Shown: positions 6,185 to 63,809 of the stretch, one piece after another | Layout of the letters: the number at the start of each line of letters is the position of its first letter | How positions within the stretch are numbered: position 1 is the first letter of the stretch | Assembly: GCA_045401115.1 (NCBI GenBank) | Contig: CP174359.1 | Coordinates: forward strand, 50,117-114,116 | From: Candidatus Phycocordibacter aenigmaticus | Lineage (GTDB): Bacteria > Patescibacteriota > Minisyncoccia > Phycocordibacterales > Phycocordibacteraceae | Reading direction: 5' to 3' | Length of the DNA stretch: 64,000 nt | The notes under the pieces: model-generated | What the model saw: the letters and a program-made list of their open reading frames with translations, nothing else | What the model was told of the DNA's origin: nothing | The model's database searches: none | Program-made: the position numbers and the translations under genes

Positions 6185-7515
6185 AGAGCGCGCACAAGAG
6201 TGGTGAACTGATCTCCTCTATCAAACTCGTTAGTGAACATACCGAAGGATGCGAAGGCGGGGCTGAAAAGAATAGTGTCGCCCGGTTCGGCTGCGGCGTA
6301 TGCTTCATTCACTGCACTTTCAAGGGTGTTGTGGAGTGTCGCGTCGGTGTCTTGCGGGAGAATGCGCTCCGTGCCGGAGCCCGCCAGATACACCACGCGC
6401 TTGGTATAGCGCGGGAGCGCTTCGGTGAGCGCGCTCATGGAAAGGCCTTTGTCTGAGCCGCCTATGATCAAAATGACGGACGTCGGACGTCCGTCATGTG
6501 GGACGGTAAGGGTGTGGAGGGCGGCGAGGGTCGCTTCGGGGGTGGTGGCGGTCGTGTCGTTGTAGAATGCTATGCCGTTTATTTCACGAATACATTCGAG
6601 GCGGCCTGGCACACCGGCGAAGTCGGCAAGCGCTTGAACGCTGAGTGCATCGTCAACCCCTGCCGCGCGCGCGGCGTTGAGTGCGCAGGCAGCGTTTGCG
6701 CGGTTATGTTCACCAGGCACTTTGAGTTGGAGGTTTTCCGGTAGTGTGTCCGTAGGTGCCACTGCGCGTTTTGCGATAATAGCGTTGTCGTAATGCTCGG
6801 TGAGGAGTGGTGCTACTTGTTCACTCATTACCAACGTGTCGTCCGGCGTTTGATGGAGGAAAATCTGCGCTTTATCGGCAAGATACGCGTCCATGTTGCT
6901 TTGGTAGTAGTCCATGTGGTCGGGGAAAAAACTGGTGAAGACTGCGATATGCGGACTCACCTGCGCGGCACCAAAACCCCAGCACTGCCATGAGTCGAGT
7001 TCCATAAGCGCGATGCTTTTTTCCGTTACCTGAGGGAGCAACGCGAGTGTGGAGACGCCGCGCACGTTGCCGCCAAGGAGTACCTCTTTTCCTGCTGCCT
7101 GCAAGATGTCATACAACATATGTGTGACGGTGCTTTTCCCACGTGTTCCAGTAACACCAATAACCGGGATGTTTGCCAACTCGGCAAACCAACTGGCGCT
7201 CATTTTTATCGGAGTCCCCTCTTTTTGTGCTTCTTGTATATACGGTGAGTCCACCGGCACGTTCGGTCCTTTTAAAATGAAGTCCCGGTTTTGGAAATCC
7301 TCTAGACGGTGTTCACCGAGGGTGTAGGTTATGTGTGGAAATTGTTTTAGTTTTTCAAGTGACGGCGCGAGGGCGTCGGCGTCTTTCAGGTCGGTGACAA
7401 TAAGGTCAGCGCCGTGTTCAGCAAGGAATGCGACATCCCCCACTCCACGTCCGAGAAGGCCCAAACCCACCACGGTTATCTTTTTTCCTTTAATTATGTC
7501 CTGCCAGTTTTGCAT
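6181..7515 (-). CDS. murD: UDP-N-acetylmuramoylalanine--D-glutamate ligase MurD
   Basis: KITVVGLGLLGRG (Rossmann), GVTGTRGKSTVT (P-loop) and C-terminal Mur ligase domain. SD-like AAAGAGGTG lies upstream. Confidence 0.9.
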   Translation of the reverse strand: MQNWQDIIKGKKITVVGLGLLGRGVGDVAFLAEHGADLIVTDLKDADALAPSLEKLKQFPHITYTLGEHRLEDFQNRDFILKGPNVPVDSPYIQEAQKEGTPIKMSASWFAELANIPVIGVTGTRGKSTVTHMLYDILQAAGKEVLLGGNVRGVSTLALLPQVTEKSIALMELDSWQCWGFGAAQVSPHIAVFTSFFPDHMDYYQSNMDAYLADKAQIFLHQTPDDTLVMSEQVAPLLTEHYDNAIIAKRAVAPTDTLPENLQLKVPGEHNRANAACALNAARAAGVDDALSVQALADFAGVPGRLECIREINGIAFYNDTTATTPEATLAALHTLTVPHDGRPTSVILIIGGSDKGLSMSALTEALPRYTKRVVYLAGSGTERILPQDTDATLHNTLESAVNEAYAAAEPGDTILFSPAFASFGMFTNEFDRGDQFTTLVRAL

Positions 7516-7590
7516 GGATTCATTCTACCGCACCTCTTTCAGGGCCCGAAATAAGTCTTATGGGAACGTATAATTGCGAAATATACTCCT

Positions 7591-7908
7591 TTGAACTATA
7601 GTGAAGACATGAATGAAAGTGTTGAGAGTTTTGCAGCGGAGCACCCAGCGGCGCTGGCCCTCCTTATAGGAGCTGGTGCATTGGCAGCTGTTTTTGGATA
7701 CCGCGCATGGCAACAAAAAAAGAGACTGATAAAAACGTTACAAAACTTCAAGGACGCCTCGAAGACATTCTTCATAATGCTGGGTGTGGTAACCGGTGCG
7801 TGTACACTCAGGAAGAACAGGAAGCGGCTGCGGCAGAGCGTTGGGGCAAAAAAACATAGCACTCACTTCGTGGTGTTAAGAACAGAATTGATACACAATT
7901 TATACTAA
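7591..7908 (+). CDS. Hypothetical small membrane protein
   Basis: 105-aa ORF with hydrophobic segment ALALLIGAGALAAVF; no recognisable family. Confidence 0.3.
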   Translation: MNYSEDMNESVESFAAEHPAALALLIGAGALAAVFGYRAWQQKKRLIKTLQNFKDASKTFFIMLGVVTGACTLRKNRKRLRQSVGAKKHSTHFVVLRTELIHNLY

Positions 7909-7918
7909 ACGTAACGAT

Positions 7919-8092
7919 ATGACTATAGATAATCCAGAGAGAATCCCGGAGCCGGGTAGTATGCCGATAGAAAACTTTATTGAGTGGCATATTGTTGAGA
8001 ACCTTGACCATATTGCGCTCGCACTCATTTTAGCGGCGGCGGGAGTGTCAGGATATCTCATGGCACGAAGGAATTTTAGAGAATAATAGGCG
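7919..8092 (+). CDS. Hypothetical 57-aa protein with C-terminal TM anchor (below the ORF-track size cutoff)
   Basis: ATG at 7919; translation MTIDNPERIPEPGSMPIENFIEWHIVENLDHIALALILAAAGVSGYLMARRNFRE ends at TAA 8090-8092. Same tail-anchored layout as the small ORF 8196..8387 on the opposite strand. Confidence 0.25.
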
Positions 8093-8112
8093 CTACTACC
8101 TTCGCGTCCACT

Positions 8113-8137
8113 AAACGGCTCACCCTGGTGAGCCGTT
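8113..8137. terminator. Conserved-stem hairpin aaacggctca-N6-tgagccgtt (repeat family, copy 1 of 6)
   Basis: Identical 10-bp stem AAACGGCTCA/TGAGCCGTTT also at 37694, 40726, 53698, 53729 (variant) and 58171, each with a different 6-nt loop. Confidence 0.55.
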
Positions 8138-8195
8138 CTTTTATAGTGTTTAATGTGCGGTGCGGTACCGTACCGCACATGTACGTGTTTTTCTA

Positions 8196-8387
8196 TTATT
8201 TCTTGTGGAGATTGTTGAAGTGGCGCATGAGGAGCGCGACCGTAATGACTGATGCGAGCGTGGCAACGACAAGAGAGCCTGAGAGAAGTAGTGCGAGACC
8301 TTCTGGACTGAGGTCGCCCTCGCCATTAGAAATCAGGCGTTCGATCTTTTCAGATAGAGATGACGGGGCGTTCTCCATATATACCAA
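8196..8387 (-). CDS. Hypothetical small tail-anchored membrane protein
   Basis: 63-aa ORF (MENAPSSLSEKIERL... then hydrophobic LALLLSGSLVVATLASVITVALL); likely start at the internal Met. Confidence 0.35.
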   Translation of the reverse strand: MVYMENAPSSLSEKIERLISNGEGDLSPEGLALLLSGSLVVATLASVITVALLMRHFNNLHKK

Positions 8388-9357: not shown

Positions 9358-9366
9358 ATGGAAAAC

Positions 9367-11389: not shown

Positions 11390-11669
11390 ACTGATTTTTG
11401 TTTTTATTGTTCTATCTGAATATCTGAACACCAGAAAAATCACTCGTTACAGTTGCTGTACTAGTGGTTTTATTATACCTGTTTTAGAAAAATTGTCAAG
11501 TAAGTAAAGATACTTACCTCTCTTCTGCTTTAGATTCTATCTGCCGTGTCGATAATCGGCAAAACCGGATATGTTTCAGAGCAGACATATCAGTGCTCGT
11601 TCTGCGCTCGATCGAGACGCACAACACCGACCATGTTAACCACTACTCAATGAGTAGCGATGGTTCCAC

Positions 11670-13127
<1,458 letters not shown>

Positions 13128-23742: not shown

Positions 23743-23851
23743 GTACTGGCGACTAGCTACTTTCCCCCGAAGAGTATCATCGCCACTACCGCGCTTAACT
23801 GCCGAGTTCGGAATGGGATCGGGTGTTTCCACGGCGTCAAGTCACCAGAAC
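23743..23851 (-). rRNA. 5S rRNA
   Basis: The reverse complement reads TCTGGTGACTTGACGCCGTGGAAACACCCGATCCCATTCCGAACTCGGCAGTTAAGCGCGGTAGTGGCGATGATACTCTTCGGGGGAAAGTAGCTAGTCGCCAGTA. Its 5'/3' ends pair (helix I) and the CCGAAC loop is conserved. Confidence 0.85.
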
Positions 23852-23925: not shown

Positions 23926-27226
<3,301 letters not shown>

Positions 27227-30445: not shown

Positions 30446-32200
30446 TTAAAATACCTCCTCTCCCTCTCTACTATAAAGGAGTAGCGCCAACCGGATCATC
30501 CGGTATGGATACGCTCCCTCAAGGTGGGTAAATATATCTTTCAATTTCTCAGTGCCCACAACCTTGCACGCGTCGTGGATAGTATCAATATCGTTTTCAA
30601 TACCGGCGGCAAGGTACGCAATATCGCGAGGACTCAATAACCCCTCATCCACGCACTCCTTTATATGTGTCAATATTGTTTCAGCTTTAAGCCCGCGCTC
30701 CTGCGCTATCGCATCCAGCGCCTGCCCGTCCCGCACATATTCAAGCGTCTCGTGCGCTGAACGTTTTTTCTGCACACCACCAGCGGCGGCACCCTTCCTC
30801 TTCTTTCCCGCCGGCGCATCGGCGCCGGCGGGACCACCCTCCTCGCTCGGCTCAGACCCACCACACGCTTTTACAAAATTCGCATGCATCGTTTCCACCT
30901 CGCTCGACTCCATGCTCGCAAACGCCTCCCGCGCCTCCAGCGACTGCGCGCGAAACGCCGCGTCCTTAGCCAACACCTCTGGGTGCACCTCAAGTGCGCG
31001 CTCGTTAAAGCCAGCAAGCGAAAGCCCCGCCAATGTCCGCACGCGCGAAAGCGCCACATACCCCTGCCCATATTCAAACGCCCGCGACAAATCCATATGC
31101 GCCGCGTCCAGCGACATCCCCTGACTCTTGTGCACGGTCATCGCCCACGCCAGACGCAGCGGCACCTGCCGAATACTCGCCAACACCCGTCCCCCGTCTT
31201 CAATACGCCACTCATCGGGCTCCGCCACCAACTCCCTGCCGTCATGCGTTTCCACTACCGGCAAACCGTCCTCATTAAAATCAATCACCACCCCCAACGT
31301 TCCGTTCACATATCGCCCGCGCATGTGGTCGTTCTTAGTAAACATCACCCGTGCACCTTCTTTCAGTTCCAACTGCTCCGGCGACAGGCACCCCCGCTTC
31401 AGCGCATCCACCAAACGCGCCGGCCCCGTGCTCTCCATCTTCAAACGCTTCGCTTCACTGGCAAGGTTCCCCAATGCTCGTTCATTAATTTGGTCCACGT
31501 TTGCATTATGCGCGTACAGTTGTGTCACCTCATCGTCCGGTTCACCACCCGCGCGATATTCCAAAATTGCTCGATGCTCTTCCGTACACGCACCACGCCG
31601 TATCGCCAACAACAACTCAAGAAATTCAGGATCTTCTTGTCGATACTGCTCAGACAGGTAACACACCAACGGTTGCAGGTCGCGCCACGCCGGCGACTCA
31701 AACGCAAAGTCCGTCATAGGCGCATGTGCGAACATCCCCTGTCCATGCGGCGCACGACGCACCACCGGCGGCAACTGGAAAAAGTCTCCCACCAACACCA
31801 CCTGCATTCCGCCAAACGGCTGCGTCGTGCGCCGCACTTCCCGGCACACCGCGTCTACCATGGACAGCGTACCCTGCGAGAGCATCGACACCTCATCAAT
31901 AATCAGCACGTTCGTGCTCGTCACACGCTTCACCACGTTCTTGTTCTGCGCGATCATGTCCAGATCCTGATCGTTCAAATGGTCCTTGATACCGATACCA
32001 CTCCACGAGTGAATCGTCATACCACCAATGTGTGTCGCCGCAATGCCGGTCGACGCGGTAATAGCCGGGTCAATTCCCCGCTCACGTAACCACCGCACAT
32101 ACGCGTTCACCGTATGCGTCTTTCCACTCCCCGGCTCACCAGTCAGAAACACGTTCGCCCCGGTTTTCAAAATAGTCAGCGCTTCGCGTTGCGTCATCAT
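30446..32200 (-). CDS. PIF1/RecD-family SF1 DNA helicase with C-terminal HTH domain
   Basis: LTGEPGSGKTH (Walker A), LIIDEVSM (Walker B), VLVGDFFQLPPV, TVHKSQG and GYVALSRV, with a C-terminal HTH-like tail. The gene is strongly GC-rich relative to the window, so the long antisense ORFs are artefacts. Confidence 0.8.
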   Translation of the reverse strand: MMTQREALTILKTGANVFLTGEPGSGKTHTVNAYVRWLRERGIDPAITASTGIAATHIGGMTIHSWSGIGIKDHLNDQDLDMIAQNKNVVKRVTSTNVLIIDEVSMLSQGTLSMVDAVCREVRRTTQPFGGMQVVLVGDFFQLPPVVRRAPHGQGMFAHAPMTDFAFESPAWRDLQPLVCYLSEQYRQEDPEFLELLLAIRRGACTEEHRAILEYRAGGEPDDEVTQLYAHNANVDQINERALGNLASEAKRLKMESTGPARLVDALKRGCLSPEQLELKEGARVMFTKNDHMRGRYVNGTLGVVIDFNEDGLPVVETHDGRELVAEPDEWRIEDGGRVLASIRQVPLRLAWAMTVHKSQGMSLDAAHMDLSRAFEYGQGYVALSRVRTLAGLSLAGFNERALEVHPEVLAKDAAFRAQSLEAREAFASMESSEVETMHANFVKACGGSEPSEEGGPAGADAPAGKKRKGAAAGGVQKKRSAHETLEYVRDGQALDAIAQERGLKAETILTHIKECVDEGLLSPRDIAYLAAGIENDIDTIHDACKVVGTEKLKDIFTHLEGAYPYRMIRLALLLYSREGEEVF

Positions 32201-32337
32201 TCCTCTATCCTATCATTTTCAAAACCACCCATGTGCGGACGTCCGACGTCCGCACATGGGTAGGTCACACACCGCCCTCATACAAAACAGCGGCGGCCCC
32301 TTCGGGACCGCCGCACCATCGCACCACCTACCACTCA

Positions 32338-35800: not shown

Positions 35801-37419
35801 TTCACTAACCGATACGTTGCTCCGTCCCAGAATGAACCCGTCACCAATATCACTCCCGTTCCGCTGGTACTGCCACTATTCGTAAAATCTGTGCCACCGG
35901 CAATACGCACGTCACTTGCTGAAAGAGTCACCTCACCAAAGGTCAACGTACCGCCTTCCGCATCAAACCCATAGTCCATATTCGTAAACGTCGTATCCGT
36001 CACCGTACTTTCACCACCACGCTGCACCACTCCCGTGCCACCGCCGGTAAACACACTCTCGCGCAGCGCCAATGTACCGCCAGTCACCCGCACAAATCCC
36101 GAGTCCGTACTCGTTGCCACCGTTGTGGTACGCATCTGCACATCTCCGCCGTTCACTGCTACTGCCGGTCGGTACGTACACCCACCACCGCCACACGCTA
36201 CCGCCACGCCGCCATAATAAAAATGTGTATGAGCCACACGCACAACAGCATCCTCACTGAATGTGATGTTGTGCCAGTCACCAACGCTCGGCGTGCTCGC
36301 ATCAGCATCACCATTTGTGTCTCCACCCCGGCTATCATCCTTGAGCGATGTCACCACTACCGGGTTCCCACTCGTACCTTCAATATGTAACGCACCAGTG
36401 CCCTGCACTGAAAGTGGCGTACTCCCCGAAAGCTTCACAATTGTTCCTGCTTGCACGGTCACGCGCACATCACTATCAATCACTACGTCATCAAACACAT
36501 ACACATTCTCAGCGCTCAGCGTCGCATCCTCCGTCAACGTTCCCGTCAATGTCACCACTGGCAATCCCGGCACCGTTACTGTCAGTGAACTCGTCGCCGT
36601 ACGTAGGGTGCTATCTACTACATAGTCGTAGTAACTCACCGCCACCGTGTAGTCACCGCTCGCTACACTCTCTCCATCATCAGTGGTACCGTCCCACTCA
36701 GCGCTCGCCGTCGTTGATGTCGCGTTTTCATCAAAAGACGCTACCGCAGTCGCTGACCCACAGTCAGCGCCACCATTAGGACACACAAACAACTCCGTCA
36801 CATACACCTCCCGCGACGCGCTCACCGCCACCGCAACAGGTGTGCTCGTGCTCAGCGTTGCATCATCCTCCACACCATCGAGGGTAAACGAAATAGTCGC
36901 CGGCAGCGCCCCTGCCGGCTCCTCAACCGTAATGCCAATCAGCGCCTCCTCGGTCAACGCGTCAGACTGTTCACTATAATTAAAATACTGCACCGAAAAC
37001 TCGTAGTCTCCCCCGTCCACGCGCGTACCACCGTCATCCGTCCCGTCCCAGTCTTGTGACGCGCTCGTACTTGTCGCCTGCACCGTGAACGTCTTCACCG
37101 CACTATCTGCTGTACACGTACCTGCCGCATCCGGACATATAAAAAGAGCATCCACATATACCTCATCGGTGGCACTCACCCCCAGCGCCACCGTCGCCCC
37201 ATCGGCGTCGGCCAACGTCGCGTCAGTCTCGGCGTCATCCAGGGTGAACGTTAATTCCACCGAGTTATCCTCCGCAGGTGGTGGTGGTGGTGGCGGAGGC
37301 GGAGGTGGCGGTGCAGCTCCCTCAGCAACCACCGACAGCGGCATCACCAAAAGCATCACCACCAGCGTCAAAGAGACTGCTCGCGCACCTGCATTAAATA
37401 GTGTGGGAAACAACCACAT
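32836..37419 (-). CDS. Giant (1527 aa) secreted/surface protein: signal peptide, poly-Pro linker, 2x FlgD-Ig-like domains, right-handed beta-helix, LCAT-like alpha/beta-hydrolase domain (nucleophile Ser replaced by Gly), Ig-like domain, acidic and Pro-rich linker, C-terminal TM anchor
   Basis: Domain evidence: N-terminal hydrophobic signal followed by PPPPPPPPPPPP; FlgD-Ig-like repeats (TFTVQATSTSASQDWDGTDDGG...GDYEFSVQYFNY, repeated twice); Gly/Thr-rich beta-helix repeats and NSWWGSDTGP; LCAT-family signature EALPYDWRY with elbow VTVVAHGYGGLV; and C-terminal WLLRISTWLLFLVALYIALYFILRRVMHRRR. Paralogue of ORF 41461..45906. Confidence 0.75.
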   Translation of the reverse strand: MWLFPTLFNAGARAVSLTLVVMLLVMPLSVVAEGAAPPPPPPPPPPPPAEDNSVELTFTLDDAETDATLADADGATVALGVSATDEVYVDALFICPDAAGTCTADSAVKTFTVQATSTSASQDWDGTDDGGTRVDGGDYEFSVQYFNYSEQSDALTEEALIGITVEEPAGALPATISFTLDGVEDDATLSTSTPVAVAVSASREVYVTELFVCPNGGADCGSATAVASFDENATSTTASAEWDGTTDDGESVASGDYTVAVSYYDYVVDSTLRTATSSLTVTVPGLPVVTLTGTLTEDATLSAENVYVFDDVVIDSDVRVTVQAGTIVKLSGSTPLSVQGTGALHIEGTSGNPVVVTSLKDDSRGGDTNGDADASTPSVGDWHNITFSEDAVVRVAHTHFYYGGVAVACGGGGCTYRPAVAVNGGDVQMRTTTVATSTDSGFVRVTGGTLALRESVFTGGGTGVVQRGGESTVTDTTFTNMDYGFDAEGGTLTFGEVTLSASDVRIAGGTDFTNSGSTSGTGVILVTGSFWDGATYRLVKDGVPYRPVNVSIKDGTRFSVDPGVVIKGFSDVDNHTLFSVGEDGNLQVGTSTPGAEAVVFTSLRDDSVLGDSNADGDASVAAPGDMAYGVRVSEGATAVLENIEARYFGASFQCRFGFCNSNGFLVNRGGEATVTRAVISDFKNSGALVQERGTTTVSRALFSEGSPAVRVFGGDAFSIEQSDFAAVSVGIDNRAAFSVQATNSWWGSDTGPDHRDNDEGTGARIDGSAVYDPWLDSAPIIVPPTPTCCSSVVFVPDMQGSQLVQGGDQLWPPEVGEVEDDLAKLAFTDAGVSQESGIVVGDLITSFSVGVPVRAGGSRTETVGLYDTASTFFDALAQVDSVTGTSTIAAWEALPYDWRYTPTAVVENGVATANGVLDMVARIEALAENSYTGSVTVVAHGYGGLVTKALVRELVAQGKADLVDTVLLAGVPQLGSARSAVGLLHDEVTESSNGARTPFMAMNLPVRFAVGSSTPAFGANLGSASVVLPSRTYFERVVAPAERGAVVGFTESVEQGEAWRSAYGDDGVRTYDDFVSFVVGSVVPRVGGARRGAPGALSANRVSGGQAVHDTYDAFSFPEGMAVVQLTGWGLPTLSGVTYWGAAGSDETKQQAQWRTDGDGVVASASAAADESATTYYIQMGQYVRDAGVSLFTHLLQATPTFDVLRSILSAGAVSTGGYVGTQLFTEADVPRSLVVSAHSPVSLSIVDSAGNYTGLDATQDPDGEVLFSEEEIAGSAYVTVGEAQYVVVPEGEEYTVAVDGTGDGVVSVLFEILEGSGQTVTAAFCSFTVSAESHGTFNVSGSAVSALALDSNGDGEVDTTVEADSNSDCADVDVEPEAPVPAGGGSNGRIFDDEEEEEESVPAVVEDEEEDGVAVAADQETVARVSGGGQVSARVPEAPAPRSLSVVADEGVSDVATTTAVDAPKMEVVVGSNVAPQTQQLAAVGAGEVDWLLRISTWLLFLVALYIALYFILRRVMHRRRLQNKR

Positions 37420-37737
37420 ATATTCTCACTATATATGCTTTTTCTATGGCTTTAACCAAACACGCCGTCTCCCATCTACCACTTTCCACCTACTATTTAC
37501 TACCTTCCACTTTCTACCTACCACCTACCAATTTCCACATACTTGCGCACGCATTCCCCACATACTTCTCCCCAGTTTTATCCCCACCACGCCTCCAACA
37601 CGCGCCGACATACTCCCACGGATACACAAAAAGTTTTCCACTACAACTTTTCAAAAACCTAAAAATCTCTTCCGGGCACGGCACCCAAAAAATAAACGGC
37701 TCACCAGAGTGAGCCGTTTATTATCTTGCTGTAAGAA

Positions 37738-40696: not shown

Positions 40697-40787
40697 GTCA
40701 CCACTATACCAAACCCCTCAAAAACAAACGGCTCACCCTATTGAGCCGTTTCTCTATTTTCTACCCCTCAGACGTAAACTCTTTTTG

Positions 40788-40870
40788 TAGCGAGGACCGA
40801 CCTCGCTACAACTGACACACGTCACTCCACATCAAAAAATAGCAAGAAATAGCGAGGTCGGTCCTCGCTA
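40788..40870. repeat. REP/BIME-like element: two inverted GTAG-initiated palindromes (tGTAGcgaggaccgacctcgctaca ... atagcgaggtcggtcctcgcta) with a spacer of about 40 bp
   Basis: About 85% identical to the element at 46798-46878. A single copy lies at 52723-52743; related hairpins with the same GGACCGACC core lie at 52673-52693 and 58137-58157, and a degenerate copy at 953-975. Confidence 0.7.
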
Positions 40871-40897
40871 TTTTGCTAAACACTACCCTTTCGAGTT

Positions 40898-41464
40898 TCA
40901 CAGACGTGCACCCGCCATAATCCACTCAACCAACAGGCGTATATAAGGACTTGCTATTAACATTGCGCCAATACCGAGCACTACCCCACTCAACCAATAC
41001 CAGAGGACATGGAGTTTTTTCTTTCCGGAACGTTGCCGCCTCTCACTCAATATCGAAACACCAATAACCCCCAAAGAAACTCCGACATAAAGTGAGCTTA
41101 AAATTAACGCGAACTCAGAATTTGACGGTCCAAGATCCCAACCGCCGCTAGACGACTCATCTGGCCACCATATAAGTATTATTGCTATAGGGATATACCA
41201 TACTGCAAACTTCCGCCACGCGTGCACTGCTTGCGGGATAAAGAAAAGGAGAAAAAAGACAATAGCGAGGGCGATGGAGGGATAGAAAAGTTGATCGCCA
41301 AGTAATGGAAATGGACAAGAAGTATCCATGACACGTGTTTCATAATTTATATAACAAATTCCAAACTGATAACTATGGTTAAAAAAGTAACCTGCTATTG
41401 CTCCTGCAACCGAAAGCAAGAAAAACCAAAACATCCAATTTTTAAATAACTTTTTCATACTCAA
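40898..41464 (-). CDS. Hypothetical polytopic membrane protein co-transcribed with the giant protein ORF 41461..45906
   Basis: 188 aa with about five TM helices. Its start overlaps the upstream giant ORF stop (ATGA), implying translational coupling. Confidence 0.5.
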   Translation of the reverse strand: MSMKKLFKNWMFWFFLLSVAGAIAGYFFNHSYQFGICYINYETRVMDTSCPFPLLGDQLFYPSIALAIVFFLLFFIPQAVHAWRKFAVWYIPIAIILIWWPDESSSGGWDLGPSNSEFALILSSLYVGVSLGVIGVSILSERRQRSGKKKLHVLWYWLSGVVLGIGAMLIASPYIRLLVEWIMAGARL

Positions 41465-44400
41465 AATAACGAATTAATAAATCTTACAGTTTGCTTAATA
41501 AAGCCAATAATTTTATCGTACCACCCTGTTTGCACTACTGCCGCCACTTGTGCACTTTGTGTGTCAGGTGTAGCAGTGCCTAATTCACGCTCAGACTCTA
41601 CGCTCGTTTCTGGAGTCTGCGTAGTGCGTGCAACAGGTTCAGTTTCTACATGCACGATAGGCGCCGGAGCTGGTTCTGGTTCGCTCACCTCAGGCGTTGT
41701 AGTTGCACTGGTGGTGGCAGTTACTACTCCACTCACCACACTGACTGCTGAAGACATTGCAGTTGCACCCACTGAAACTGCTGGCGAGTCCAAACCGCCC
41801 GACACCACACCATCTACTCCATCAGGAGACACTGTCTGGTCAACATTTCCGTCCCCGTCGAGGTCAAGAGCAATATCACTTGAAGCGCCGCCGGTAATGG
41901 TAAACGATGCTTGGGTTGAAGTAGACACTGTAAAGTTTGAATAACTCGATACTATCTTTTGGTTATCACCTGAAAGGGTTTCTACAAACACTGTCACATC
42001 CCCACTGCCAGTGCCACCCATAGCAAATGTATACTCTCCATCATCAGGAAGGATAAGATATTTAGCGTCACCAACTGTGAAATATGAACTGCCAGGGATA
42101 TCGTTCGTGACAGTGAGAATATCAGCATCCGGGTCCTGGCCAGGGGTGATGCCGGTATAGTTTCCGTGCTGATCGGTAACACCAAGTGTGACTGGAGAGT
42201 GAACGTTAACGATTAATCTATCGTCCTCATCATTGGGCTCCCATTTTGTTGCAGAGATATATTCACTCTCTGTTACTGTTTTATTTTTTAAAACATCATA
42301 TATAAGACCCTGGGTCGGATTAACACTAACAACATCTTTATGGTCTGTGTCTTTGTGGCTCTCGCTATATAATTTTAAATTAAAATAATATTTCTCCTCT
42401 CCACTACTCACTGCACTTGGATATACTACCGCCCCATCGCCCTCCGTAGTAAAGAGTGCTCTATAAATATTGTTAGCGCGCTCTCCATCACTATCCCCCT
42501 CTTTGTTGAAGTGGTAAGTAATACCTTTAATGGTTGGAAGACCCCAGCCTGCAACCTGCACTACCCGTATGGAACTTGGGAAATTAAAACTGTCATACTC
42601 CCGATGCCAGTCTCGTGCTTTAGTGACCAAACCTGTTTCGAGCACTTCCGGAACCTTATATTTTTTGTCATTTGGAGCACGTGGTATAAATGCTGCTGTT
42701 AGAAAATTACTCATATCAAGGAAACTGGTAGTGGTGTCGCCATACGTCGACCACCACTTTCCAAGCATTCTTGAAGCTTCGCGTTCGGTTTCAGGCTGTA
42801 CAAAAACGATGACAGGGTCAAGCACTTTTTCGAAATATTTCTCTGACGGTAAAAGATGGTGAGACACATCTATCGTTTTCCCCAGTCGTCGTGCGTCTCG
42901 TTTTGAGATTAAAGTAATAAACCCTCCTGCTACCGTAATTTCAGAGCCCTCACCATGCAATAACCCTGTCATCGCCCGCGGTGTCCCGAGTTGTGGCGAA
43001 GCAACCATAACAAAATTATCAACCAAGCCTTCTTTTCCTTCATCAATTAAACGTTTAATAAGCGCCTTGCCTACCAAGCCGCCGTACGAATGCATCACCA
43101 TCGTTACCTTCCCAGTGCGCGATTCCTCGGCAAGCGCTTCTATACGCTCCACAAAGTCAATCACTCCTTCGGTGGTTGTGGCACCATGCTCGGCAATATA
43201 GTCCGGCGCGTAGCGCCAGTCGTACGCTAATGGCTCCCATGCAGTAATAGCTGAAGCGGTTTGCTCGCTACTCGTCGCAGTGAGCGTATTCATAAAGTCA
43301 GTGAAGGGTTGATAAATAGGCTTAAGAGAGAAATTATTTAAAACACCATCAACCACCACATTATCTGTCACCGGCTCACCGGTTTCATCAAACACCAGCT
43401 TTGCAAAATATCCATCAGCTTGATGTAATGCAGTTGGCCATAATGTATTTCCCCCGCTCTTCAACCTACTCCCCTGCAACCCCGGCAAAAACACTACCGA
43501 AGAACAACACACCTCTCCTTCATTCTCCTCACCTTCCCCTTCTTCACCACCATCATCACTAATCGGCGGTGGCGCAAACGGGTCATACGAAAGCCAGTTA
43601 CTAAATTCCACCAACCCAACCGCAGCCACGCCGCCTCCGTCAGGATTAGACGAATGTTGAGGTCCACTCACACTACCCCACCAGTTACGCACCGCATCAA
43701 ATGTTTTTGAAGAATGGTTATGAATGGCGGTTGCCAACGAACTATAGAAAGCACTCCTGGTAATACTGAAACTGTCGCCACCAAACACCCGCACCGCTGG
43801 CCCACTTCCCTTAAACTGCGCACGCGACACGGTCGTCGTGCCCCGCTCCTGCACAATAACGCCCGAGTTTTTAAAGTCTGAAAACTCCGCATACTCAACC
43901 GTCGCCTCCCCACCCCGATTCGTTAAAAATGCGTGCGAGTTACAAAAACCAAATGCACATGAGAAATTCTTTCCAAAGTACCGCGCAGTGATATTCCCTA
44001 AGGAAACCGTCCCGCCTTCCGAAACCCGAATACCATACACCATATCCCCGGCCTGCGGCGTGGTACTGGCGCCATCATTATCTGTGTCCCCCAACACCGT
44101 ATCGTCACGCAACGAGGTAAAGATTACTTTTTCAACACCTTCCGCAGCATCTCCCACCACCAAACGCGCGCCACCACTTACCGAAAAAAGAACATCATTA
44201 TCAGTCTCAGATAACCCCTTCACCACCACCCCTGGGTCAATGGTAAACAACGTGTCGTCCTTTAAAGAGACATTATGTATATGATACGGAACACCATCTT
44301 TAACGAGTCGGTATGAGTCACCGTCCCACAGCGGTCCGGAAATAAACACAGACCCATCCCCGGTATTCCCACCGGTATTGGTAAACATAAGCGAATCTTC

Positions 44401-45906
44401 CGTCTCAGGATCAAAATGAAAACTGGAACTGCTCAACGTATTATTCCCAAACTCAACCTCTCCATTCGTCGCCAAAAGTGCTCGCTTCACTCCGGAAAAT
44501 GTACTGCTCGCAATCACTGCACTCCCGCCCAGCACCGCAAACCCTACATCACCCCCACGCACCGTACTACTTGCCACACTCAACGAACCACCATACAAAC
44601 GCACAAATCCTGAATCGGTTGTAGTTGCCACGCTCACATTCTCTAGTGTCACAACGCCATCAGCAATATACAACGCCGGGCCCGTGCAAGAATCATGCGT
44701 ACATGTTTTTACCGCACCCCCATACCGCACATCCGTGTTATACACACGCACCGTACTGTCATCACTGACGAGTATCTTACTCCAATCACCTTGACTCGGC
44801 GTCGTAGCGCTTCCATTCTCGTTACTGTCGCCACCAACCGAATCATCATACAGCGAGGTAATAGTAACTGGCGTCCCCGTCGCCGTTCCCACTGTAATTG
44901 CTCCACCATTTTTCACCTGCACCGGACGCTCGCCATACAACTTCACCACGGTCCCCGGCCGCACCACTACATGCGCACCGGAAACAATCATATTCTTTAA
45001 AATATATACCTCCCCGTCCCCGCCCACCGTCATATCAACATCAATCACTCCCGACAATGCACCTCTATCCACCAACTCCTCCTCAGACAGATCACCAAAT
45101 ATAAACACATCTGGCGAAACCTTTTCTACCGCCTCCTCCCCTGTAGCATAGTCATAGTAGCGAACCGCTGCTTTATAGTACCCTGGCGCTACCGCGCCAC
45201 CGTTAGAAGAAGCGCCATCCCATGTTTTTGAAAAAGCTGACGTAGTTGCGTTTTGCGAAAAGAATTTAACATCCGTACTCCCGTCACACGTTGTCACTAC
45301 TTCCGGGCATATGTATAAACGAGTAAAGTAAAACTCCTGCGGAGCTTCCACACCAATCGTAATCTCTCCCTCTCCAGATAAATCTTCAAACGAAAACATA
45401 AACTCAGACGGCGTCGTAGTCGCCCCGCCACCAGAACCATCATCCTCCACACCTTCACCGCCCTCACCGTCTCCATCTCCGCCACCATCAGACCCCTGCA
45501 CCGAAATCGTATACGCTCCCACTTCCTCAACAGCATCCTCCTCTACCTCATAACGATAATAGCGAGAAACCACTGTATACACTCCTTCCTCAACCTCTTC
45601 ATCATCTGCATCAGTGCCATCCCACTCCCGAGACGCACTCGTACTGGTTGCGTTAATATCAAAACGCTTCACATAGCTACTCCCGTCACAGACCTCAGCC
45701 TCAAAACTACAAATATACAACCGCGTAAAACGCACCTCGGTGGGTGCAGTAACACTAATAGTCATCGGTTCCCCTCCCTGCACAAAAGAAACATTCTCGG
45801 CCACTCCATCAAAACTAACACCTGTATAGCTGCTGCCCTCGGCAAACACCGCACCCGGCACTATAAAAAACAGCAAAACTACCACGGTGTATCGTAAACA
45901 CCTCAT
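41461..45906 (-). CDS. Giant (1481 aa) secreted/surface protein, paralogue of ORF 32836..37419: signal peptide, FlgD-Ig-like domains, beta-helix, LCAT-like alpha/beta-hydrolase with intact Ser nucleophile, Ig-like domain, Thr/Pro-rich C-terminus
   Basis: Same domain order as the other giant ORF: INATSTSASREWDGTDADDEE...GVYTVVSRYY; a beta-helix with NWWGSVSGP; CCSSVVFLPGLQGS...EPLAYDWRY...VTMVMHSYGGLV (elbow x-H-S-Y-G); and a C-terminal Ig-like domain. Confidence 0.75.
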   Translation of the reverse strand: MRCLRYTVVVLLFFIVPGAVFAEGSSYTGVSFDGVAENVSFVQGGEPMTISVTAPTEVRFTRLYICSFEAEVCDGSSYVKRFDINATSTSASREWDGTDADDEEVEEGVYTVVSRYYRYEVEEDAVEEVGAYTISVQGSDGGGDGDGEGGEGVEDDGSGGGATTTPSEFMFSFEDLSGEGEITIGVEAPQEFYFTRLYICPEVVTTCDGSTDVKFFSQNATTSAFSKTWDGASSNGGAVAPGYYKAAVRYYDYATGEEAVEKVSPDVFIFGDLSEEELVDRGALSGVIDVDMTVGGDGEVYILKNMIVSGAHVVVRPGTVVKLYGERPVQVKNGGAITVGTATGTPVTITSLYDDSVGGDSNENGSATTPSQGDWSKILVSDDSTVRVYNTDVRYGGAVKTCTHDSCTGPALYIADGVVTLENVSVATTTDSGFVRLYGGSLSVASSTVRGGDVGFAVLGGSAVIASSTFSGVKRALLATNGEVEFGNNTLSSSSFHFDPETEDSLMFTNTGGNTGDGSVFISGPLWDGDSYRLVKDGVPYHIHNVSLKDDTLFTIDPGVVVKGLSETDNDVLFSVSGGARLVVGDAAEGVEKVIFTSLRDDTVLGDTDNDGASTTPQAGDMVYGIRVSEGGTVSLGNITARYFGKNFSCAFGFCNSHAFLTNRGGEATVEYAEFSDFKNSGVIVQERGTTTVSRAQFKGSGPAVRVFGGDSFSITRSAFYSSLATAIHNHSSKTFDAVRNWWGSVSGPQHSSNPDGGGVAAVGLVEFSNWLSYDPFAPPPISDDGGEEGEGEENEGEVCCSSVVFLPGLQGSRLKSGGNTLWPTALHQADGYFAKLVFDETGEPVTDNVVVDGVLNNFSLKPIYQPFTDFMNTLTATSSEQTASAITAWEPLAYDWRYAPDYIAEHGATTTEGVIDFVERIEALAEESRTGKVTMVMHSYGGLVGKALIKRLIDEGKEGLVDNFVMVASPQLGTPRAMTGLLHGEGSEITVAGGFITLISKRDARRLGKTIDVSHHLLPSEKYFEKVLDPVIVFVQPETEREASRMLGKWWSTYGDTTTSFLDMSNFLTAAFIPRAPNDKKYKVPEVLETGLVTKARDWHREYDSFNFPSSIRVVQVAGWGLPTIKGITYHFNKEGDSDGERANNIYRALFTTEGDGAVVYPSAVSSGEEKYYFNLKLYSESHKDTDHKDVVSVNPTQGLIYDVLKNKTVTESEYISATKWEPNDEDDRLIVNVHSPVTLGVTDQHGNYTGITPGQDPDADILTVTNDIPGSSYFTVGDAKYLILPDDGEYTFAMGGTGSGDVTVFVETLSGDNQKIVSSYSNFTVSTSTQASFTITGGASSDIALDLDGDGNVDQTVSPDGVDGVVSGGLDSPAVSVGATAMSSAVSVVSGVVTATTSATTTPEVSEPEPAPAPIVHVETEPVARTTQTPETSVESERELGTATPDTQSAQVAAVVQTGWYDKIIGFIKQTVRFINSLF

Positions 45907-45974
45907 ACTTTCACCAAACCACTAAAATAACCGCGCTGCCACCGCAAAACTAATTTCTGTGGAAAACTCCCCAT

Positions 45975-46010
45975 CAAAAAAATATAAAGGACAGTCCTTT
46001 ATATTTTTTT
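45975..46010. terminator. Perfect hairpin aaaaaaatataaaggac-a-gtcctttatattttttt between the RAYT-like gene and the giant ORF start
   Basis: 17-bp arms. A second copy of the core atataaaggacNgtcctttatat lies inside the RAYT-like CDS at 46561-46583. Confidence 0.5.
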
Positions 46011-46012
46011 GA

Positions 46013-46738
46013 TTATCCTTTTTTTGAGCCAAGGTACCTAAGCTCTTGTGTATATTCAAAATGTGAAACTACTCCCACAAGATGTTTAACATCATCAAAA
46101 GAAGGAACATCCTCCTCAAGTTCCTTCAGTGCATCAAAATTAATAATGACCCGCTCCGGTCGCACCCTCCCTGCCCCTATATCAGGGAAACTCGCATGCG
46201 CGTAATTCGTAAGAAAAGAAACAGCATCACTCGGCAATGCTTCAAAACCGTCCTCTTTCCAGTTCGGCGCATGCAGATCAAGCGGATTAAGCGCGACATA
46301 CGCAAAGAGCCACCGCAGATAATCACCACTCTCTACGTGCCTACTCTTAAAAGGTCCTTGAAACACCGTTCCGGAATGCTCATGCTTTTTATTGAAATAC
46401 ATAGAATACCCCGTCGAAACCTTTTTCATAAAGCGTGAAATCCCCTCTTCGGCCTTTTGCCGGAGAATCAAATGGAAATGATTCGGCATCAACGCGTACC
46501 CCAAAACATCTACCAACCCCTGACCCACCTCCTCTTTTTCAAAAATTGATATAAAGGACTGTCCTTTATATTTATTGAGAAGATTTGCCGTGTGCATCTC
46601 CCTTTCGGTATTAGCAAGAAATAAAAGCAATTTAAAACGAAAATAATCTCTCTCATCGAGAAAGACCTCGGCCTTATGCGCGCCGCGATTATAGACGTGA
46701 TACACCTCATCAGCTACCAGTGGTGTTTCCCTCTGCAT
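46013..46738 (-). CDS. IS200/IS605-family HUH tyrosine (Y1) transposase, REP-associated (RAYT)-like
   Basis: N-terminal VYHVYNRG, HUH motif MPNHFHLIL and catalytic-Tyr motif AYVALNPL (Y-x3-NP). Flanked 60 bp upstream by a GTAG-initiated REP pair. Confidence 0.6.
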   Translation of the reverse strand: MQRETPLVADEVYHVYNRGAHKAEVFLDERDYFRFKLLLFLANTEREMHTANLLNKYKGQSFISIFEKEEVGQGLVDVLGYALMPNHFHLILRQKAEEGISRFMKKVSTGYSMYFNKKHEHSGTVFQGPFKSRHVESGDYLRWLFAYVALNPLDLHAPNWKEDGFEALPSDAVSFLTNYAHASFPDIGAGRVRPERVIINFDALKELEEDVPSFDDVKHLVGVVSHFEYTQELRYLGSKKG

Positions 46739-46797
46739 ATACTATGTGTACCAAAATCCACACCTCCATCCACATACTTATCCCCACTTCTTCTTTG

Positions 46798-46878
46798 TAG
46801 CAAGGACCGACCTCGCTACAACTGATTCACATCACATTACTCCACCCTAAAACAAAATAGCGAGGTCGGTCCTCGCTA
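46798..46878. repeat. REP/BIME-like element (second full copy), immediately 5' of the RAYT-like gene
   Basis: tGTAGcaaggaccgacctcgctaca-spacer-atagcgaggtcggtcctcgcta, homologous to 40788-40870. Confidence 0.7.
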
Positions 46879-46930
46879 TTTTAAATGGGAAAATAGATGG
46901 TAGCGCCAAAGAAAGGCTTGCAATTCACAC

Positions 46931-52722: not shown

Positions 52723-52743
52723 TAGCGAGGACCGACCTCGCTA
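52723..52743. repeat. Single REP-like palindrome aTAGcgaggaccgacctcgcta, with a related hairpin at 52673-52693
   Basis: Same core as the BIME-like pairs at 40788 and 46798. Confidence 0.6.
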
Positions 52744-53552: not shown

Positions 53553-53898
53553 GTTGTGTCTTTTATTGTCCTTAATAACTACATCAAAGACAATCTGTCT
53601 ATAGGACAGGTTACTCCTCTGCCTCCTCAAAGTCAATACAACGGACCGCTCTCTTTGACTCATCCTCGTATGATTGAGCCCGACGTCAATCATACATAAA
53701 CGGCTCATCAGGGTGAGCCGTTCTTTGCTAAACAGCTCAATACATTGAGCCGTTTTCTCTGCCTATTAGGCACCGCGCATCACCCTCCCTTTTCTATTTT
53801 TAAACCCAAAACCCCTTCTCGTTTTCCGCTTCTAATATCTGAAGTGTGAAATCATATTTCTGAAATTCCACCCCTGCCCATGTTACTATTTATCCATA

Positions 53899-58083: not shown

Positions 58084-58224
58084 ATATAAATATAATACAT
58101 TTTATTTACCAAAAGTCAACCTTTACCATTACCCTCTCTCAAGGACCGACCTTGAGAAACCCATAAAATTAAACGGCTCAGTCTCCTGAGCCGTTTAATA
58201 ATGACACTCGTTGTACGCACCAAC

Positions 58225-61346: not shown

Positions 61347-61404
61347 AACTGTGTAGGGATTCTATCTTTTTGCCTATACTCTGTCAAATGCCCGTCCTCG
61401 TTGT

Positions 61405-61725: not shown

Positions 61726-61756
61726 ACGCTCGGATATATCATACTGTTTATTTTAA

Positions 61757-62200
61757 TTAGAAAGGAATATCGTCTGGGCTAATCTCTTCGGTAGGATATT
61801 CAATATCATTTGTGTCAGAACTTCCCTCCTGTCCCGGCTGGTCACCACCACGTGTCTCTTGAGTATCACCGGTACCCGATCGTGCACCAAACTGAACACG
61901 GTCCGCCACAATCTCAGTGCGGTACTGTTTCTGCCCATCTTTATCCCACGAACGCGTTTGGATACGACCTTCAATCAAGACCCCGCTTCCTTTTTTAAGG
62001 TATTGTGCCGTGGTTTCTGCCTGACGTCCAAACACGACAATATTATGAAATTCAGTTGCTTCTTGTTTTTGACGGTCCTGGTTATACCACACACGATTGG
62101 TTGCTACACCGAATGTTGCTACATTAGCCCCTGAAGGCAGTGCGCGAAGTTCCGGGTCACGTGTGAGGTTCCCCGCAATAAATGCTTTATTAAGATACAT
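61757..62200 (-). CDS. ssb: Single-stranded DNA-binding protein
   Basis: OB-fold signature (AFIAGNLTRDPELR; IVVFGRQAE) and an acidic C-terminal tail ending DDIPF. Confidence 0.85.
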   Translation of the reverse strand: MYLNKAFIAGNLTRDPELRALPSGANVATFGVATNRVWYNQDRQKQEATEFHNIVVFGRQAETTAQYLKKGSGVLIEGRIQTRSWDKDGQKQYRTEIVADRVQFGARSGTGDTQETRGGDQPGQEGSSDTNDIEYPTEEISPDDIPF

Positions 62201-62302
62201 ATACTGCCATTATAACCCCCTCATCAACTACCGCAAACACTGGTTATCCAACAAAAAACACGCCCGAAAGCGTGTTTTTGCACATTGAGTATAGGTTGGT
62301 GC

Positions 62303-62854
62303 TTATGCTTTCTCCTCGTCAGAAGAAGTATCGCCTGATTCATCAACCTCATCTGCTTCCATATCGTCTTCAGCAGCAATCGGCTGCACCGCACCAGCGT
62401 CAGTGCGCACATCAGCCAACGCGCCTTCTACCATGTCGCGTGTTGTTTTTATAATCATATAGCGCAACACATTCTTGTTCGCCTTCATTGCTTCATCAAG
62501 CGCAGCAAGGGTGCCGGGTGTTGTTTCAAACGCAATCCATCCAAAATATGCGGTATCAAAACTACGACGCTTACCTTCTATTTTTTTATCAATAGTGTAG
62601 GCAAGGTCAAAAAGATTTGGTTCACGCTCACCCACTATCTCAGCGGCAACTGCCTTCACTGCGTCTCGCACTGTGTTCGTTTCAGCGTCAACTTCCTCAG
62701 AAGGAATAGTTGAGAGTAAATGATAACCAAGCTCGTAAAGCTGTTGTACATCATTTTCTCCCTCAGCAGCAACCAAGTCCGATAGATCGGTAAATTCCTC
62801 GGTTTCAGCCTGTGTATTATTATCTTTTGTTTCCATGTCCATAGAAGTTACCAC
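62303..62854 (-). CDS. rpsF: Ribosomal protein S6 with acidic N- and C-terminal extensions
   Basis: S6 core (QLYELGYHLLSTIPSEE...NLFDLAYTIDK...FGWIAFE...RYMIIKT) and rpsF-ssb-rpsR synteny. Confidence 0.65.
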   Translation of the reverse strand: MVTSMDMETKDNNTQAETEEFTDLSDLVAAEGENDVQQLYELGYHLLSTIPSEEVDAETNTVRDAVKAVAAEIVGEREPNLFDLAYTIDKKIEGKRRSFDTAYFGWIAFETTPGTLAALDEAMKANKNVLRYMIIKTTRDMVEGALADVRTDAGAVQPIAAEDDMEADEVDESGDTSSDEEKA

Positions 62855-62873
62855 AAAGCGGCGTTCCAGGCAA

Positions 62874-63809
62874 TCAGTTCAGCAACGACACTACCCCAAA
62901 CACCCGCTGGGCATTCTCGCGCACCGCGCTCTGTACCTCCTCCTCAGAAATGCCCCGAATACGCGCTAAAGCTCCCACAACATGTTGTACATAGGCTGGT
63001 TCGTTACGCTCTCCCCGGTGCGGCTTCGGCGCCGCGTACGGCGCATCTGTTTCAGTCAAGAGCATATCAAGCGGTGCTTCGCGCACTACCTCGTCGTAGT
63101 CCTCAGTAAAGGTCAGTACGCCCGTAAACGACGTCGTCATACCCAGCGCCCAGAAACGTCGCGCCACCGCCAGATTCCCCACAAAAAAGTGCATATTCCC
63201 CTTCACCACTCCAATGTGCGGACGTCGGACGTCCGCACTATTCGCGCCCGCCATATCCACCTCACCCTCCTGGTCAACACCTGGGTGTTGACCATTCCCT
63301 AAAGATTCAAAATAATCAGCCGCTTCCTCATACGCATCCATAGATCCTTTTGATGGTCGGCAGTGCACCATCAGTGGCATGTCGTACTCTTGCGCCAATG
63401 CTGTCTGTGCTTTAAACACCTCCCACTGCGTCTCTTTCCACCCCTCTCCGCTTTCCTCGCCGGGTGCTGTCGTCGATTGTCTGAAAAAATCAAGTCCACA
63501 CTCACCCACACCGACCACGCGTGGCTCATTTAACAGCGCCGCAAACGCGTCTCTATCAAATACTTCTTTCTGCGTATAGTTTGGATGCAACCCCACACAC
63601 GCCCACAGGTTGTCATGCTTCTGCGCGAGGCGTACCGCCTCGCGCGAACTCTCCAGGTCAACGCCCACCACAATCCCCGCTACACCTCCCTCACGCATCC
63701 GCGCAATTACGGCGTCTTGGTCCTCTTTTAAACCATCCAAATTCGGGTGGCAGTGCACGTCAATATATCTCAGCACATCATTCATAACGCTACTGTAGCA
63801 CAACAGCAC
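62874..63809 (-). CDS. tatD: TatD-family metal-dependent DNase/hydrolase
   Basis: YIDVHCHP, GLHP, GECGLD and FTGVLTF motifs. The likely start is the internal MNDVLRY. Carries the GCGGACGTC-N-GACGTCCGC palindrome in-frame. Confidence 0.8.
   Translation of the reverse strand: MLLCYSSVMNDVLRYIDVHCHPNLDGLKEDQDAVIARMREGGVAGIVVGVDLESSREAVRLAQKHDNLWACVGLHPNYTQKEVFDRDAFAALLNEPRVVGVGECGLDFFRQSTTAPGEESGEGWKETQWEVFKAQTALAQEYDMPLMVHCRPSKGSMDAYEEAADYFESLGNGQHPGVDQEGEVDMAGANSADVRRPHIGVVKGNMHFFVGNLAVARRFWALGMTTSFTGVLTFTEDYDEVVREAPLDMLLTETDAPYAAPKPHRGERNEPAYVQHVVGALARIRGISEEEVQSAVRENAQRVFGVVSLLN

Follow-up and report, generated by a model that had tools for sequence, protein, structure and literature searches.

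Repetitive extragenic palindromic (REP) sequences and the REP doublets forming hairpins (REPINs) are dispersed palindromic repeats of 20-40 bp that can lie within open reading frames (ORFs), as in E. coli and Pseudomonas (Di Nocera et al. 2013, PMC3733652). One of their ends bears a GTAG or CGTC tag that stays unpaired, a CCA tail is also common, and Rickettsia palindromic elements (RPEs) are mentioned alongside them as intragenic palindromic elements (PMC3733652). Here we describe a palindromic repeat, designated family A, in a 64-kb stretch of contig CP174359.1 of Candidatus Phycocordibacter aenigmaticus (Patescibacteriota), the whole of which is referred to as the window. We think it probable that family A is a dispersed, short, symmetric, GC-rich palindromic repeat with the behaviour of selfish DNA of the REP or RPE type, found in Patescibacteria (the Candidate Phyla Radiation, CPR), with a variant in Omnitrophota. 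Family A lies between genes and, in frame, within conserved genes, at variable surface loops and linkers. The principle of intragenic REPs and in-frame RPEs is already known; family A itself, and a patescibacterial host for such elements, are new. The exact core sequence was not found in the literature searched, and the top-ranked literature pairing REP, palindrome or RAYT (REP-associated tyrosine transposase) with CPR names did not mention RAYT, REPINs or extragenic palindromes. The window holds three GC-rich copies of 23-33 bp with the architecture (arm)-GGACGTC-S-GACGTCC-(arm'):

6473-6497, inside murD (minus-strand ORF 6181-7515): copy 1, ATGAC-GGACGTC-G-GACGTCC-GTCAT, translated as HDGRPTSV
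32227-32259, intergenic: copy 2, CCCATGTGC-GGACGTC-C-GACGTCC-GCACATGGG
63216-63238, inside tatD (minus-strand ORF 62874-63809): copy 3, GTGC-GGACGTC-G-GACGTCC-GCAC, translated as ADVRRPH

Family A resembles REPs and REPINs in being short (20-40 bp) and dispersed, in occurring both singly and as inverted doublets, in being translatable inside ORFs, and in having a host that encodes a RAYT-like Y1/HUH protein. However, it has no tag, it is fully symmetric except at its centre, and its core consists of a heptamer repeated in tandem, which provides two GACGTC sites. REPs and REPINs number tens to hundreds of copies per genome and are mostly extragenic; the window, 64 kb of a 721-kb contig, holds three copies of family A, two of the three intragenic. 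The single-copy RAYT gene flanked by the same repeats is not found for family A. The palindromic elements of Rickettsia were reportedly described by Ogata and colleagues in 2000, RPE-1 being said to span about 100-150 bp and to add 30-50 residues. Family A would share with them the character of a selfish palindrome lying in frame in conserved genes of a reduced genome, at surface loops compatible with the protein, and in-frame insertion at permissive positions was found in MurD and TatD in the window and in RpoB and other proteins elsewhere. Unlike RPEs, family A measures 25-33 bp and adds about 8-16 residues, with a largest insertion of 48 nt; it shows no sequence similarity to them and occurs in another phylum.

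Two other systems invite comparison. Fungal mitochondria contain GC palindromes, namely the PstI palindromes of Neurospora (CCCTGCAG-TA-CTGCAGGG) and the GC clusters of yeast, some of which lie in frame in a coding gene. They share with family A a GC-rich palindrome in an AT-rich compact genome and two 6-bp sites arranged as arm-site-spacer-site-arm, but they are organellar and of other sequence, and the likeness is an analogy only. The initial annotation of the window had compared the repeat with HIP1 of cyanobacteria, which is also a short palindrome over-represented within genes as well as elsewhere. This comparison does not hold, since HIP1 is an 8-mer that occurs about once per kb and is embedded by substitution without length change, whereas family A is longer (23-33 bp in the window, 25-33 bp across genomes), is rare, with about one copy per 20 kb of the window, and is associated with insertions.

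All three sites of the initial annotation, which had placed two of the palindromes within genes in different frames, were confirmed, and the frame of the core in the tatD copy does differ from that in the murD copy. The MurD, TatD and transposase-like proteins encoded in the window match proteins of Patescibacteria group bacterium UBA2163, on a 721-kb contig, with complete identity. Copy 2 has the start of a PIF1-like helicase gene (32200) 27 nt downstream and the stop codon of an acidic ORF (32338) on its other side. When one mismatch or bulge was allowed, the palindromes reached 6471-6499, 32225-32263 and approximately 63213-63242, and a one-base bulge lengthened the arms of copy 3 to AAT(A)GTGC...GCACATT. 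The arms ATGTGCGG are common to the tatD copy and intergenic copy 2, showing arm similarity within the genome. Searched with up to two mismatches, the 15-mer GGACGTCNGACGTCC gave exactly three matches in the window, compared with a mean of 0.11 in 100 dinucleotide-preserving shuffles, none of which (0/100) reached three; the copies are thus not random. Outside the palindromes the three copies show no alignable sequence, giving no sign of a larger element around the palindrome, and an Rfam scan of the window returned only the rRNAs and one tRNA, with no family at the copies. Separately, a palindrome at 8153-8180, ATGTGCGGTGCGGTACCGTACCGCACAT, combines the ATGTGCGG...CCGCACAT arms of copies 2 and 3 with another centre (GGTAC-C-GTACC), and the 8-mer ATGTGCGG occurs nine times in the window compared with 2.7 expected.

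The initial annotation had suggested an iterated mini-palindrome tolerated in frame, and alignment with MurD and TatD orthologues as a check. The suggestion was borne out, as the nearest orthologues of both proteins lack the copy and the core lies in frame in many conserved CPR genes; the alignments gave a clean insertion in TatD and, in MurD, a loop with a net gain of 9 nt that looks replaced. In the case of TatD, the closest homologue (P0122, locus L124; 85% protein and 84% DNA identity) carries no palindrome, and codon-level comparison with it delimits the following feature:

63210-63257, minus strand: 48-nt insertion (16 codons) in tatD relative to P0122

The insertion lies between GGT GAG GTG and GTG GTG AAG and consists of the palindrome of about 30 nt plus 18 other bases (GATATGGCGGGCGCG... 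on the coding strand), which have no other occurrence in the window. An imperfect 9-nt direct repeat, GGTGAGGTG / GGAGTGGTG, is present at its edges, the boundaries being uncertain by a few bases. Compared with MITEs (miniature inverted-repeat transposable elements), which have terminal inverted repeats and a target-site duplication and derive from a cognate insertion sequence, the whole family-A element is palindromic and has only this imperfect direct repeat at the tatD insertion; scans of 40 window ORFs found no cognate insertion sequence for a MITE-type origin. Solved TatD structures have about 10 residues where the window protein has about 41. In an AlphaFold2 model (mean predicted local distance difference test score, pLDDT, 87.5) the insertion is placed in the coil that connects helix 150-161 to strand 196-199, the pLDDT of residues 175-191 being below 50, and the site is thus a loop predicted to be disordered and permissive.

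Related palindromes occur in the same frame in this TatD loop of at least 10 homologues. A relative with 82% identity (P0123) carries a different sub-type, AATGTTGGACGTCCGACGTCCAACATT, at nearly the same place, and this sequence is identical in P0133, a TatD protein only 61% identical. In other homologues the palindrome has decayed, or a change in one arm is matched by a compensating change in the other: P0148 contains CTTGATGTC-G-GACATCAAG twice (GATGTC-G-GACATC). A joint change of both arms is also seen in locus L095 (GGACATC-G-GATGTCC). The arms of the window's tatD copy match copy 2 of its own genome and not the palindromes of orthologous tatD genes. Genes for TatD also host other repeats. 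A second palindrome family, GGTCAACACC-YG-GGTGTTGACC, is present at 63271-63294 in tatD, about 30 nt from copy 3, where it translates as NGQHPGVDQ; it is decayed in P0122, peptide variants of it occur in many TatD homologues, and its other window copy lies at 3410-3441, just after the stop codon of a TP_methylase gene. In P0133 (L127 ~1905-2060; also in P0135 and P0145) a further in-frame insertion of about 130 nt directly follows the family-A palindrome. Its ends are the inverted repeats CACCAAGAATG...CATTCTTTGGTG, a CGGGGCATGCCCCG palindrome adjoins it, and it resembles a translated MITE- or RPE-like element within the loop.

In MurD, the loop before the ILI(M/I)GG strand is five to six residues longer in the window protein than in solved structures. 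The closest orthologue (P0002, 86%) has AEGDKNT at this site, encoded by unrelated DNA that resembles the consensus of more distant homologues. A 67% orthologue (P0003) has ATGATGGACGTCCGACGTCCGTCAT at the same site, and P0038 has a related palindrome there, GATGTGGGACGT-GGT-ACGTCCCACATC. Thus, both genes show presence and absence of the repeat among close orthologues.

The initial annotation had held that a lack of further copies, together with orthologues encoding the same residues by unrelated DNA, would speak against its reading; instead, related genomes contain many more copies, and where orthologues have the same residues they use the same palindrome. One genome per species was scanned for CGGACGTCNGACGTCCG, which gave at least 119 loci. 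At least 92 of the loci listed come from high-GC organisms (mean GC 0.66), in which any centre base occurs and the match rarely extends, and these look like chance matches or (GACGTCN)n heptamer runs. At least 27 loci, with at least 34 copies, come from Patescibacteria metagenome-assembled genomes (MAGs) of 35-61% GC, compared with a composition-based expectation for the 17-mer of 1e-5 to 1e-4 per Mb in CPR-like genomes of 35-45% GC. Among the matches listed, the CPR hosts comprise Saccharibacteria, Paceibacterota, Uhrbacteria, Nomurabacteria, Kaiserbacteria, Azambacteria and Staskawiczbacteria; all CPR copies (34/34) have a G or C centre, and the palindrome is at least 3 bp longer than the 17-mer (extension up to 12) in 18 of the 34, as opposed to 14 of 93 non-CPR copies. 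Several copies per genome were present in other CPR MAGs, such as JACQMO01 and JAGMBS01, and at least two Omnitrophota loci contain a variant with centre T. Viral contigs gave one match, with centre A and in an apparent coding context, which is not informative.

When 41 copies were aligned in the orientation of their central base, the consensus was aaWTKnC-GGACGTC-S-GACGTCC-GnMAWtt, with mirror-symmetric flanks and a total length of 25-33 bp; no GTAG, CGTC or CCA tag was conserved in these copies. The core is GGACGTC duplicated exactly in tandem, and longer runs of the heptamer also occur. Several genomes share an arm sub-type (at least 8 have TGAC, at least 5 AATTC), and doublets recur as well, which are inverted in loci L058, L084 and L085 and direct in L054 and L091; none occurs in the window. 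By central base, the intergenic copies are distributed 7:11 and have no orientation preference. Intragenic copies carry C on the sense strand in a ratio of 17:6, a bias more simply explained by amino-acid selection because the intergenic copies show 7:11. In gammaproteobacterial matches, from Alcanivorax, Marinobacteraceae and Zhongshania (L083, L116, L119, L011, L074, L060), the 17-mer has centre A or T and sits in ACGC-flanked palindromes or (GACGTCN)n runs, with three matches in Alcanivorax hongdengensis alone; these may be a separate REP-like family.

About half of the copies in other CPR loci sit in long ORFs. The frame is kept in rpoB, leuS (a doublet), ileS, gatA, trxB and the end of pgi, and further hosts are a PIF1-like helicase gene, a radical-SAM gene and two glycosyltransferase genes with up to four copies each. 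The rpoB doublet translates as DVRRPESGRRTSEF and adds 12 residues relative to solved RpoB structures, in an otherwise tightly aligned segment. This 47-nt 'palindrome of palindromes' (AATTCGGACGTCCGACGTCCGGAATCCGGACGTCGGACGTCCGAATT), found in rpoB of one MAG, also occurs in a Nomurabacteria MAG, within trxB, although the second unit has decayed there; sub-families and doublets are shared across genes as well as genomes. The core is used in all three frames; since it contains a stop codon in none of the six frames and yields small, hydrophilic peptides (RTSDV, GR[P/R]TS, DV[R/G]RP), it should be easy to tolerate. In the C-terminal linker of the window's PIF1-like helicase, a different 28-bp GC palindrome at 30806-30833 translates as GPAGADAPAG, and an Azambacteria orthologue (L020 4148-4164) has a family-A copy (RTSDV) in the same linker after a common ACGG motif; the same linker thus hosts different palindromes in different lineages.

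The window also encodes a protein of the type associated with REPs, together with palindromes of other families:

46013-46738, minus strand: RAYT-like Y1 (HUH) transposase gene, 241 aa, Pfam PF01797 (Y1_Tnp) at 28.4 bits (cutoff 23)
45973-46013: family-D palindrome flanking the RAYT-like gene
46549-46571: family-D palindrome inside the RAYT-like gene, in frame at about codons 57-63, translated as KYKGQSF
46795-46882, repeated at 40785-40873: family-B REPIN-like inverted doublet with a partly conserved spacer of about 35 nt
40785-40873, 46795-46882, 52723-52743, 58137-58157 and 947-983: family-B palindromes, (T)GTAGCGAGGAC-C-GACCTCGCTAC(A)

The RAYT-like protein scored 33.6 bits against NCBIfam REP_Tyr_transpos, below the cutoff of 80, and contains the motifs YHVYNRG, HFHLIL (HUH) and YVALNP. 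The best structural match of its model (pLDDT 89.5) was 4ER8, the E. coli REP-associated tyrosine transposase with its REP hairpin, a further point of likeness to REP/REPIN systems, followed by the TnpA proteins of IS608 and ISDra2. There are more than 1,100 homologues, and those with a named source are all from CPR but one. At the 29 homologue loci examined, odd-centred palindromes specific to each genome, of the form xxxxAAGGAC-N-GTCCTTxxxx, flank the gene, and at least 14 of the 29 also have an in-frame internal palindrome at about codons 57-63, at the same position (nt +168), which co-varies with the flanking copies of that genome. We know of no description of an internal, translated REP inside a RAYT gene. 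Family B probably represents the cognate repeats of the RAYT-like gene. In total, the window has 76 palindromes with arms of at least 9 bp, belonging to several families, compared with 6-14 in shuffles. Another intergenic hairpin family, AACGGCTCAC-N4-GTGAGCCGTT, has six copies (8114-8137, 37689-37724, 40724-40753, 53699-53755, 58168-58199); these hairpins are terminator-like or another repeat family. Family A is similar in style to the RAYT-linked palindromes: its centre is odd, its inner stem is GGAC...GTCC, its paired outer arms vary and its hairpin tip is CNG.

If family A is a selfish repeat of the REP/RPE type, an element able to form a hairpin would insert to give new copies, and selection would retain only those insertions that preserve the frame in permissive loops or that fall in spacers. 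Selection for frame and permissive loops would explain the repeated occupancy of the same MurD and TatD loops. Arm-to-arm (intrastrand) template switching at quasi-palindromes would keep the symmetry perfect, and this would explain the compensating changes in both arms. Intergenic copies may secondarily serve as RNA hairpins.

Several findings weigh against this interpretation. For family A, neither a transposition event nor a target-site duplication nor an autonomous partner came to light; it has no GTAG or CGTC tag and no asymmetry except the central base, and its intergenic copies lack the strand bias expected of single-strand transposition. The basis in this genome is three copies in a 64-kb window. 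Insertion sizes are not uniform, with 48 nt in tatD (18 of them non-palindromic) compared with a net 9 nt in murD, and the small net gain relative to P0002 makes the murD loop appear replaced rather than simply expanded. Furthermore, the palindromes flanking the RAYT-like gene itself have a different core (GGAC-N-GTCC, families B and D). The family-A core, with up to one mismatch, was absent from 80 metagenome loci of RAYT homologues (400 kb), which carry GGAC-N-GTCC-type palindromes instead, and a tblastn search for a RAYT gene in 127 family-A-related loci recovered only the window's own, with none in the 8-kb family-A loci. A RAYT-type HUH/Y1 transposase with single-strand specificity, such as the one at 46013-46738, acting in trans on the hairpin is the most likely mobiliser of family A, but we put it forward as a tentative candidate, rated low because the tests of adjacency and co-occurrence gave no support. 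Another enzyme, or recombination after DNA uptake, may provide other routes of spread. A bolder proposal, to which we give slightly less credence than to the RAYT candidate, is that family A represents a previously undescribed class of intragenic selfish DNA extending from Patescibacteria to Omnitrophota: an untagged symmetric palindrome of about 27 bp on a duplicated GGACGTC, with a dedicated non-RAYT mobiliser, which would come back again and again to the same permissive loops in essential genes (murD, tatD, rpoB and aminoacyl-tRNA synthetase genes) by site preference or by uptake and homologous recombination.

The selfish, REP/RPE-like nature of family A is nevertheless the best-supported explanation; none of its rivals accounts together for presence and absence among orthologues, sub-types shared by unrelated genes and variable paired arms. 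The rival that survives best, although we judge it unlikely, is a vertically inherited loop sequence formed in situ, in which old palindromes would be kept perfect by template switching and GGACGTC heptamer slippage, with occasional loss. The related palindromes found in the same frame in the same MurD loop of three lineages and in the TatD loop of at least 10 homologues would fit such inheritance, as would the joint change of both arms in P0148 and L095, the tandem GGACGTC duplication with its longer heptamer runs, and the small net length change in MurD. However, the closest orthologues (85-86%) have ancestral-looking loops of unrelated DNA, and the arms of the tatD copy match the intergenic copy of their own genome rather than the orthologous tatD palindrome. 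In addition, identical cores and arm sub-types recur in unrelated genes and distant classes at 35-60% GC, and the same 47-nt doublet is found in rpoB and trxB.

Slightly less likely is a functional RNA or DNA hairpin that would terminate transcription, serve to stabilise or process mRNA, or cause translation to pause; we assign it a low probability too. Classical REPs are thought to act in such ways (PMC3733652). The RNA folds of family A are very stable (-17 to -36 kcal/mol), copy 2 folding into a hairpin that has 16 bp and a CNG triloop (-35.9 kcal/mol, z = -6.75). Moreover, several intergenic copies in other genomes lie directly 3' of stop codons or just 5' of start codons, and the helicase start is 27 nt downstream of copy 2. 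Yet occupancy is sporadic among close orthologues, and copies sit in the middle of rpoB, aminoacyl-tRNA synthetase genes, murD and tatD, positions at which a terminator would do harm. A U-tract is not consistently present, the intergenic copies show no preferred orientation, and the acidic ORF next to copy 2 already has its own terminator-like hairpin at 32290-32314, between the ORF and the copy.

A signal for DNA uptake or recombination that is preferred by the competence apparatus of bacteria which, like these, scavenge DNA, and that accumulates by biased uptake and homologous recombination, as do the DNA uptake sequences (DUS) of Neisseria and the uptake signal sequences (USS) of Haemophilus, is improbable. 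Uptake sequences are known in coding regions, at poorly conserved positions. The conservation of the core across CPR classes whatever their GC content would suit such a signal, and recombination of incoming alleles could place copies at the same gene positions in divergent relatives. In contrast, the density of family A is about one per 20 kb and not about one per kb, isolated half-sites are not enriched (in the window GGACGTCC is confined to the three palindromes, and CGGACGTC was found once elsewhere), the variable paired outer arms are left unexplained, and 400 kb of other CPR contigs are without family A. Membership of the DUS or USS class was rejected, the window lacking abundant single motifs at about one per kb.

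Marginally more improbable is a recognition site for a dimeric DNA-binding protein, an AatII-type GACGTC restriction-modification system or a nicking enzyme. The repeat has perfect two-fold symmetry, a strictly conserved core of 15-17 bp with an S centre and two GACGTC sites per copy; the last of these, pointed out in the initial annotation, is upheld by the finding that 6 of the 12 GACGTC sites of the window fall in the three copies. The reading as a nicking or restriction site based on GACGTC was not supported. GACGTC is neither avoided nor enriched in the window beyond the copies (12 observed versus 9.2 expected), half-sites show no enrichment, and the scan of 40 window ORFs turned up neither a DNA methyltransferase nor a restriction endonuclease. 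Absence from the nearest orthologues, or placement in the loops of unrelated genes, would not be expected of a site with a chromosomal function, and palindromy out to 33-47 bp suggests a hairpin or cruciform rather than a protein footprint. A type II restriction-modification target was also considered and, for the 64 kb of the window, rejected: when all 6-bp palindromes were counted GACGTC was unremarkable beyond the three copies, and no cognate enzyme was found among the 40 ORFs. Finally, chance or an assembly or sequencing artefact, favoured only by the small copy number in the window, can be set aside, as no shuffle reached three copies, identical alleles are present in assemblies and samples of independent origin (NCBI, Logan, ENA and JGI-derived proteins), including independent Logan assemblies of four samples, and the host ORFs show no disruption and are conserved around each copy.

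The genomes of Patescibacteria are among the smallest and most compact in bacteria, and repeats and mobile DNA are usually said to be scarce in them. Family A colonises the coding sequence of their core genes, including those for RNA polymerase beta, aminoacyl-tRNA synthetases, MurD and TatD. If it is selfish, such DNA can persist in compact genomes by hiding in protein loops. Family A would also offer a marker for recent gene flow between CPR lineages, and it marks positions in the loops of essential proteins that tolerate 8-16 extra residues. Together with the CPR-wide RAYT-like family and its own palindromes, it provides a tractable system for REP-type recognition and spread. Moreover, short insertions in alignments of CPR orthologues may be repeat DNA and not adaptive change, which calls for caution in annotation.

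Other features of the window concern its rRNA genes and large ORFs. The 16S rRNA gene (11669-13126) is separated from the 23S-5S genes (23744-23849, 23932-27219) by about 11 kb of protein genes, and the 23S match, at 3288 nt compared with 2925 nt for the model, points to insertions totalling about 360 nt in the 23S. Two very large minus-strand ORFs, at 32836-37419 (1527 aa) and 41461-45906 (1481 aa), may encode surface proteins; the 1481-aa ORF has weak LCAT/alpha-beta-hydrolase and beta-helix matches. A strong negative GC skew of the plus strand extends from about 30 kb to 47 kb and spans both of these ORFs.

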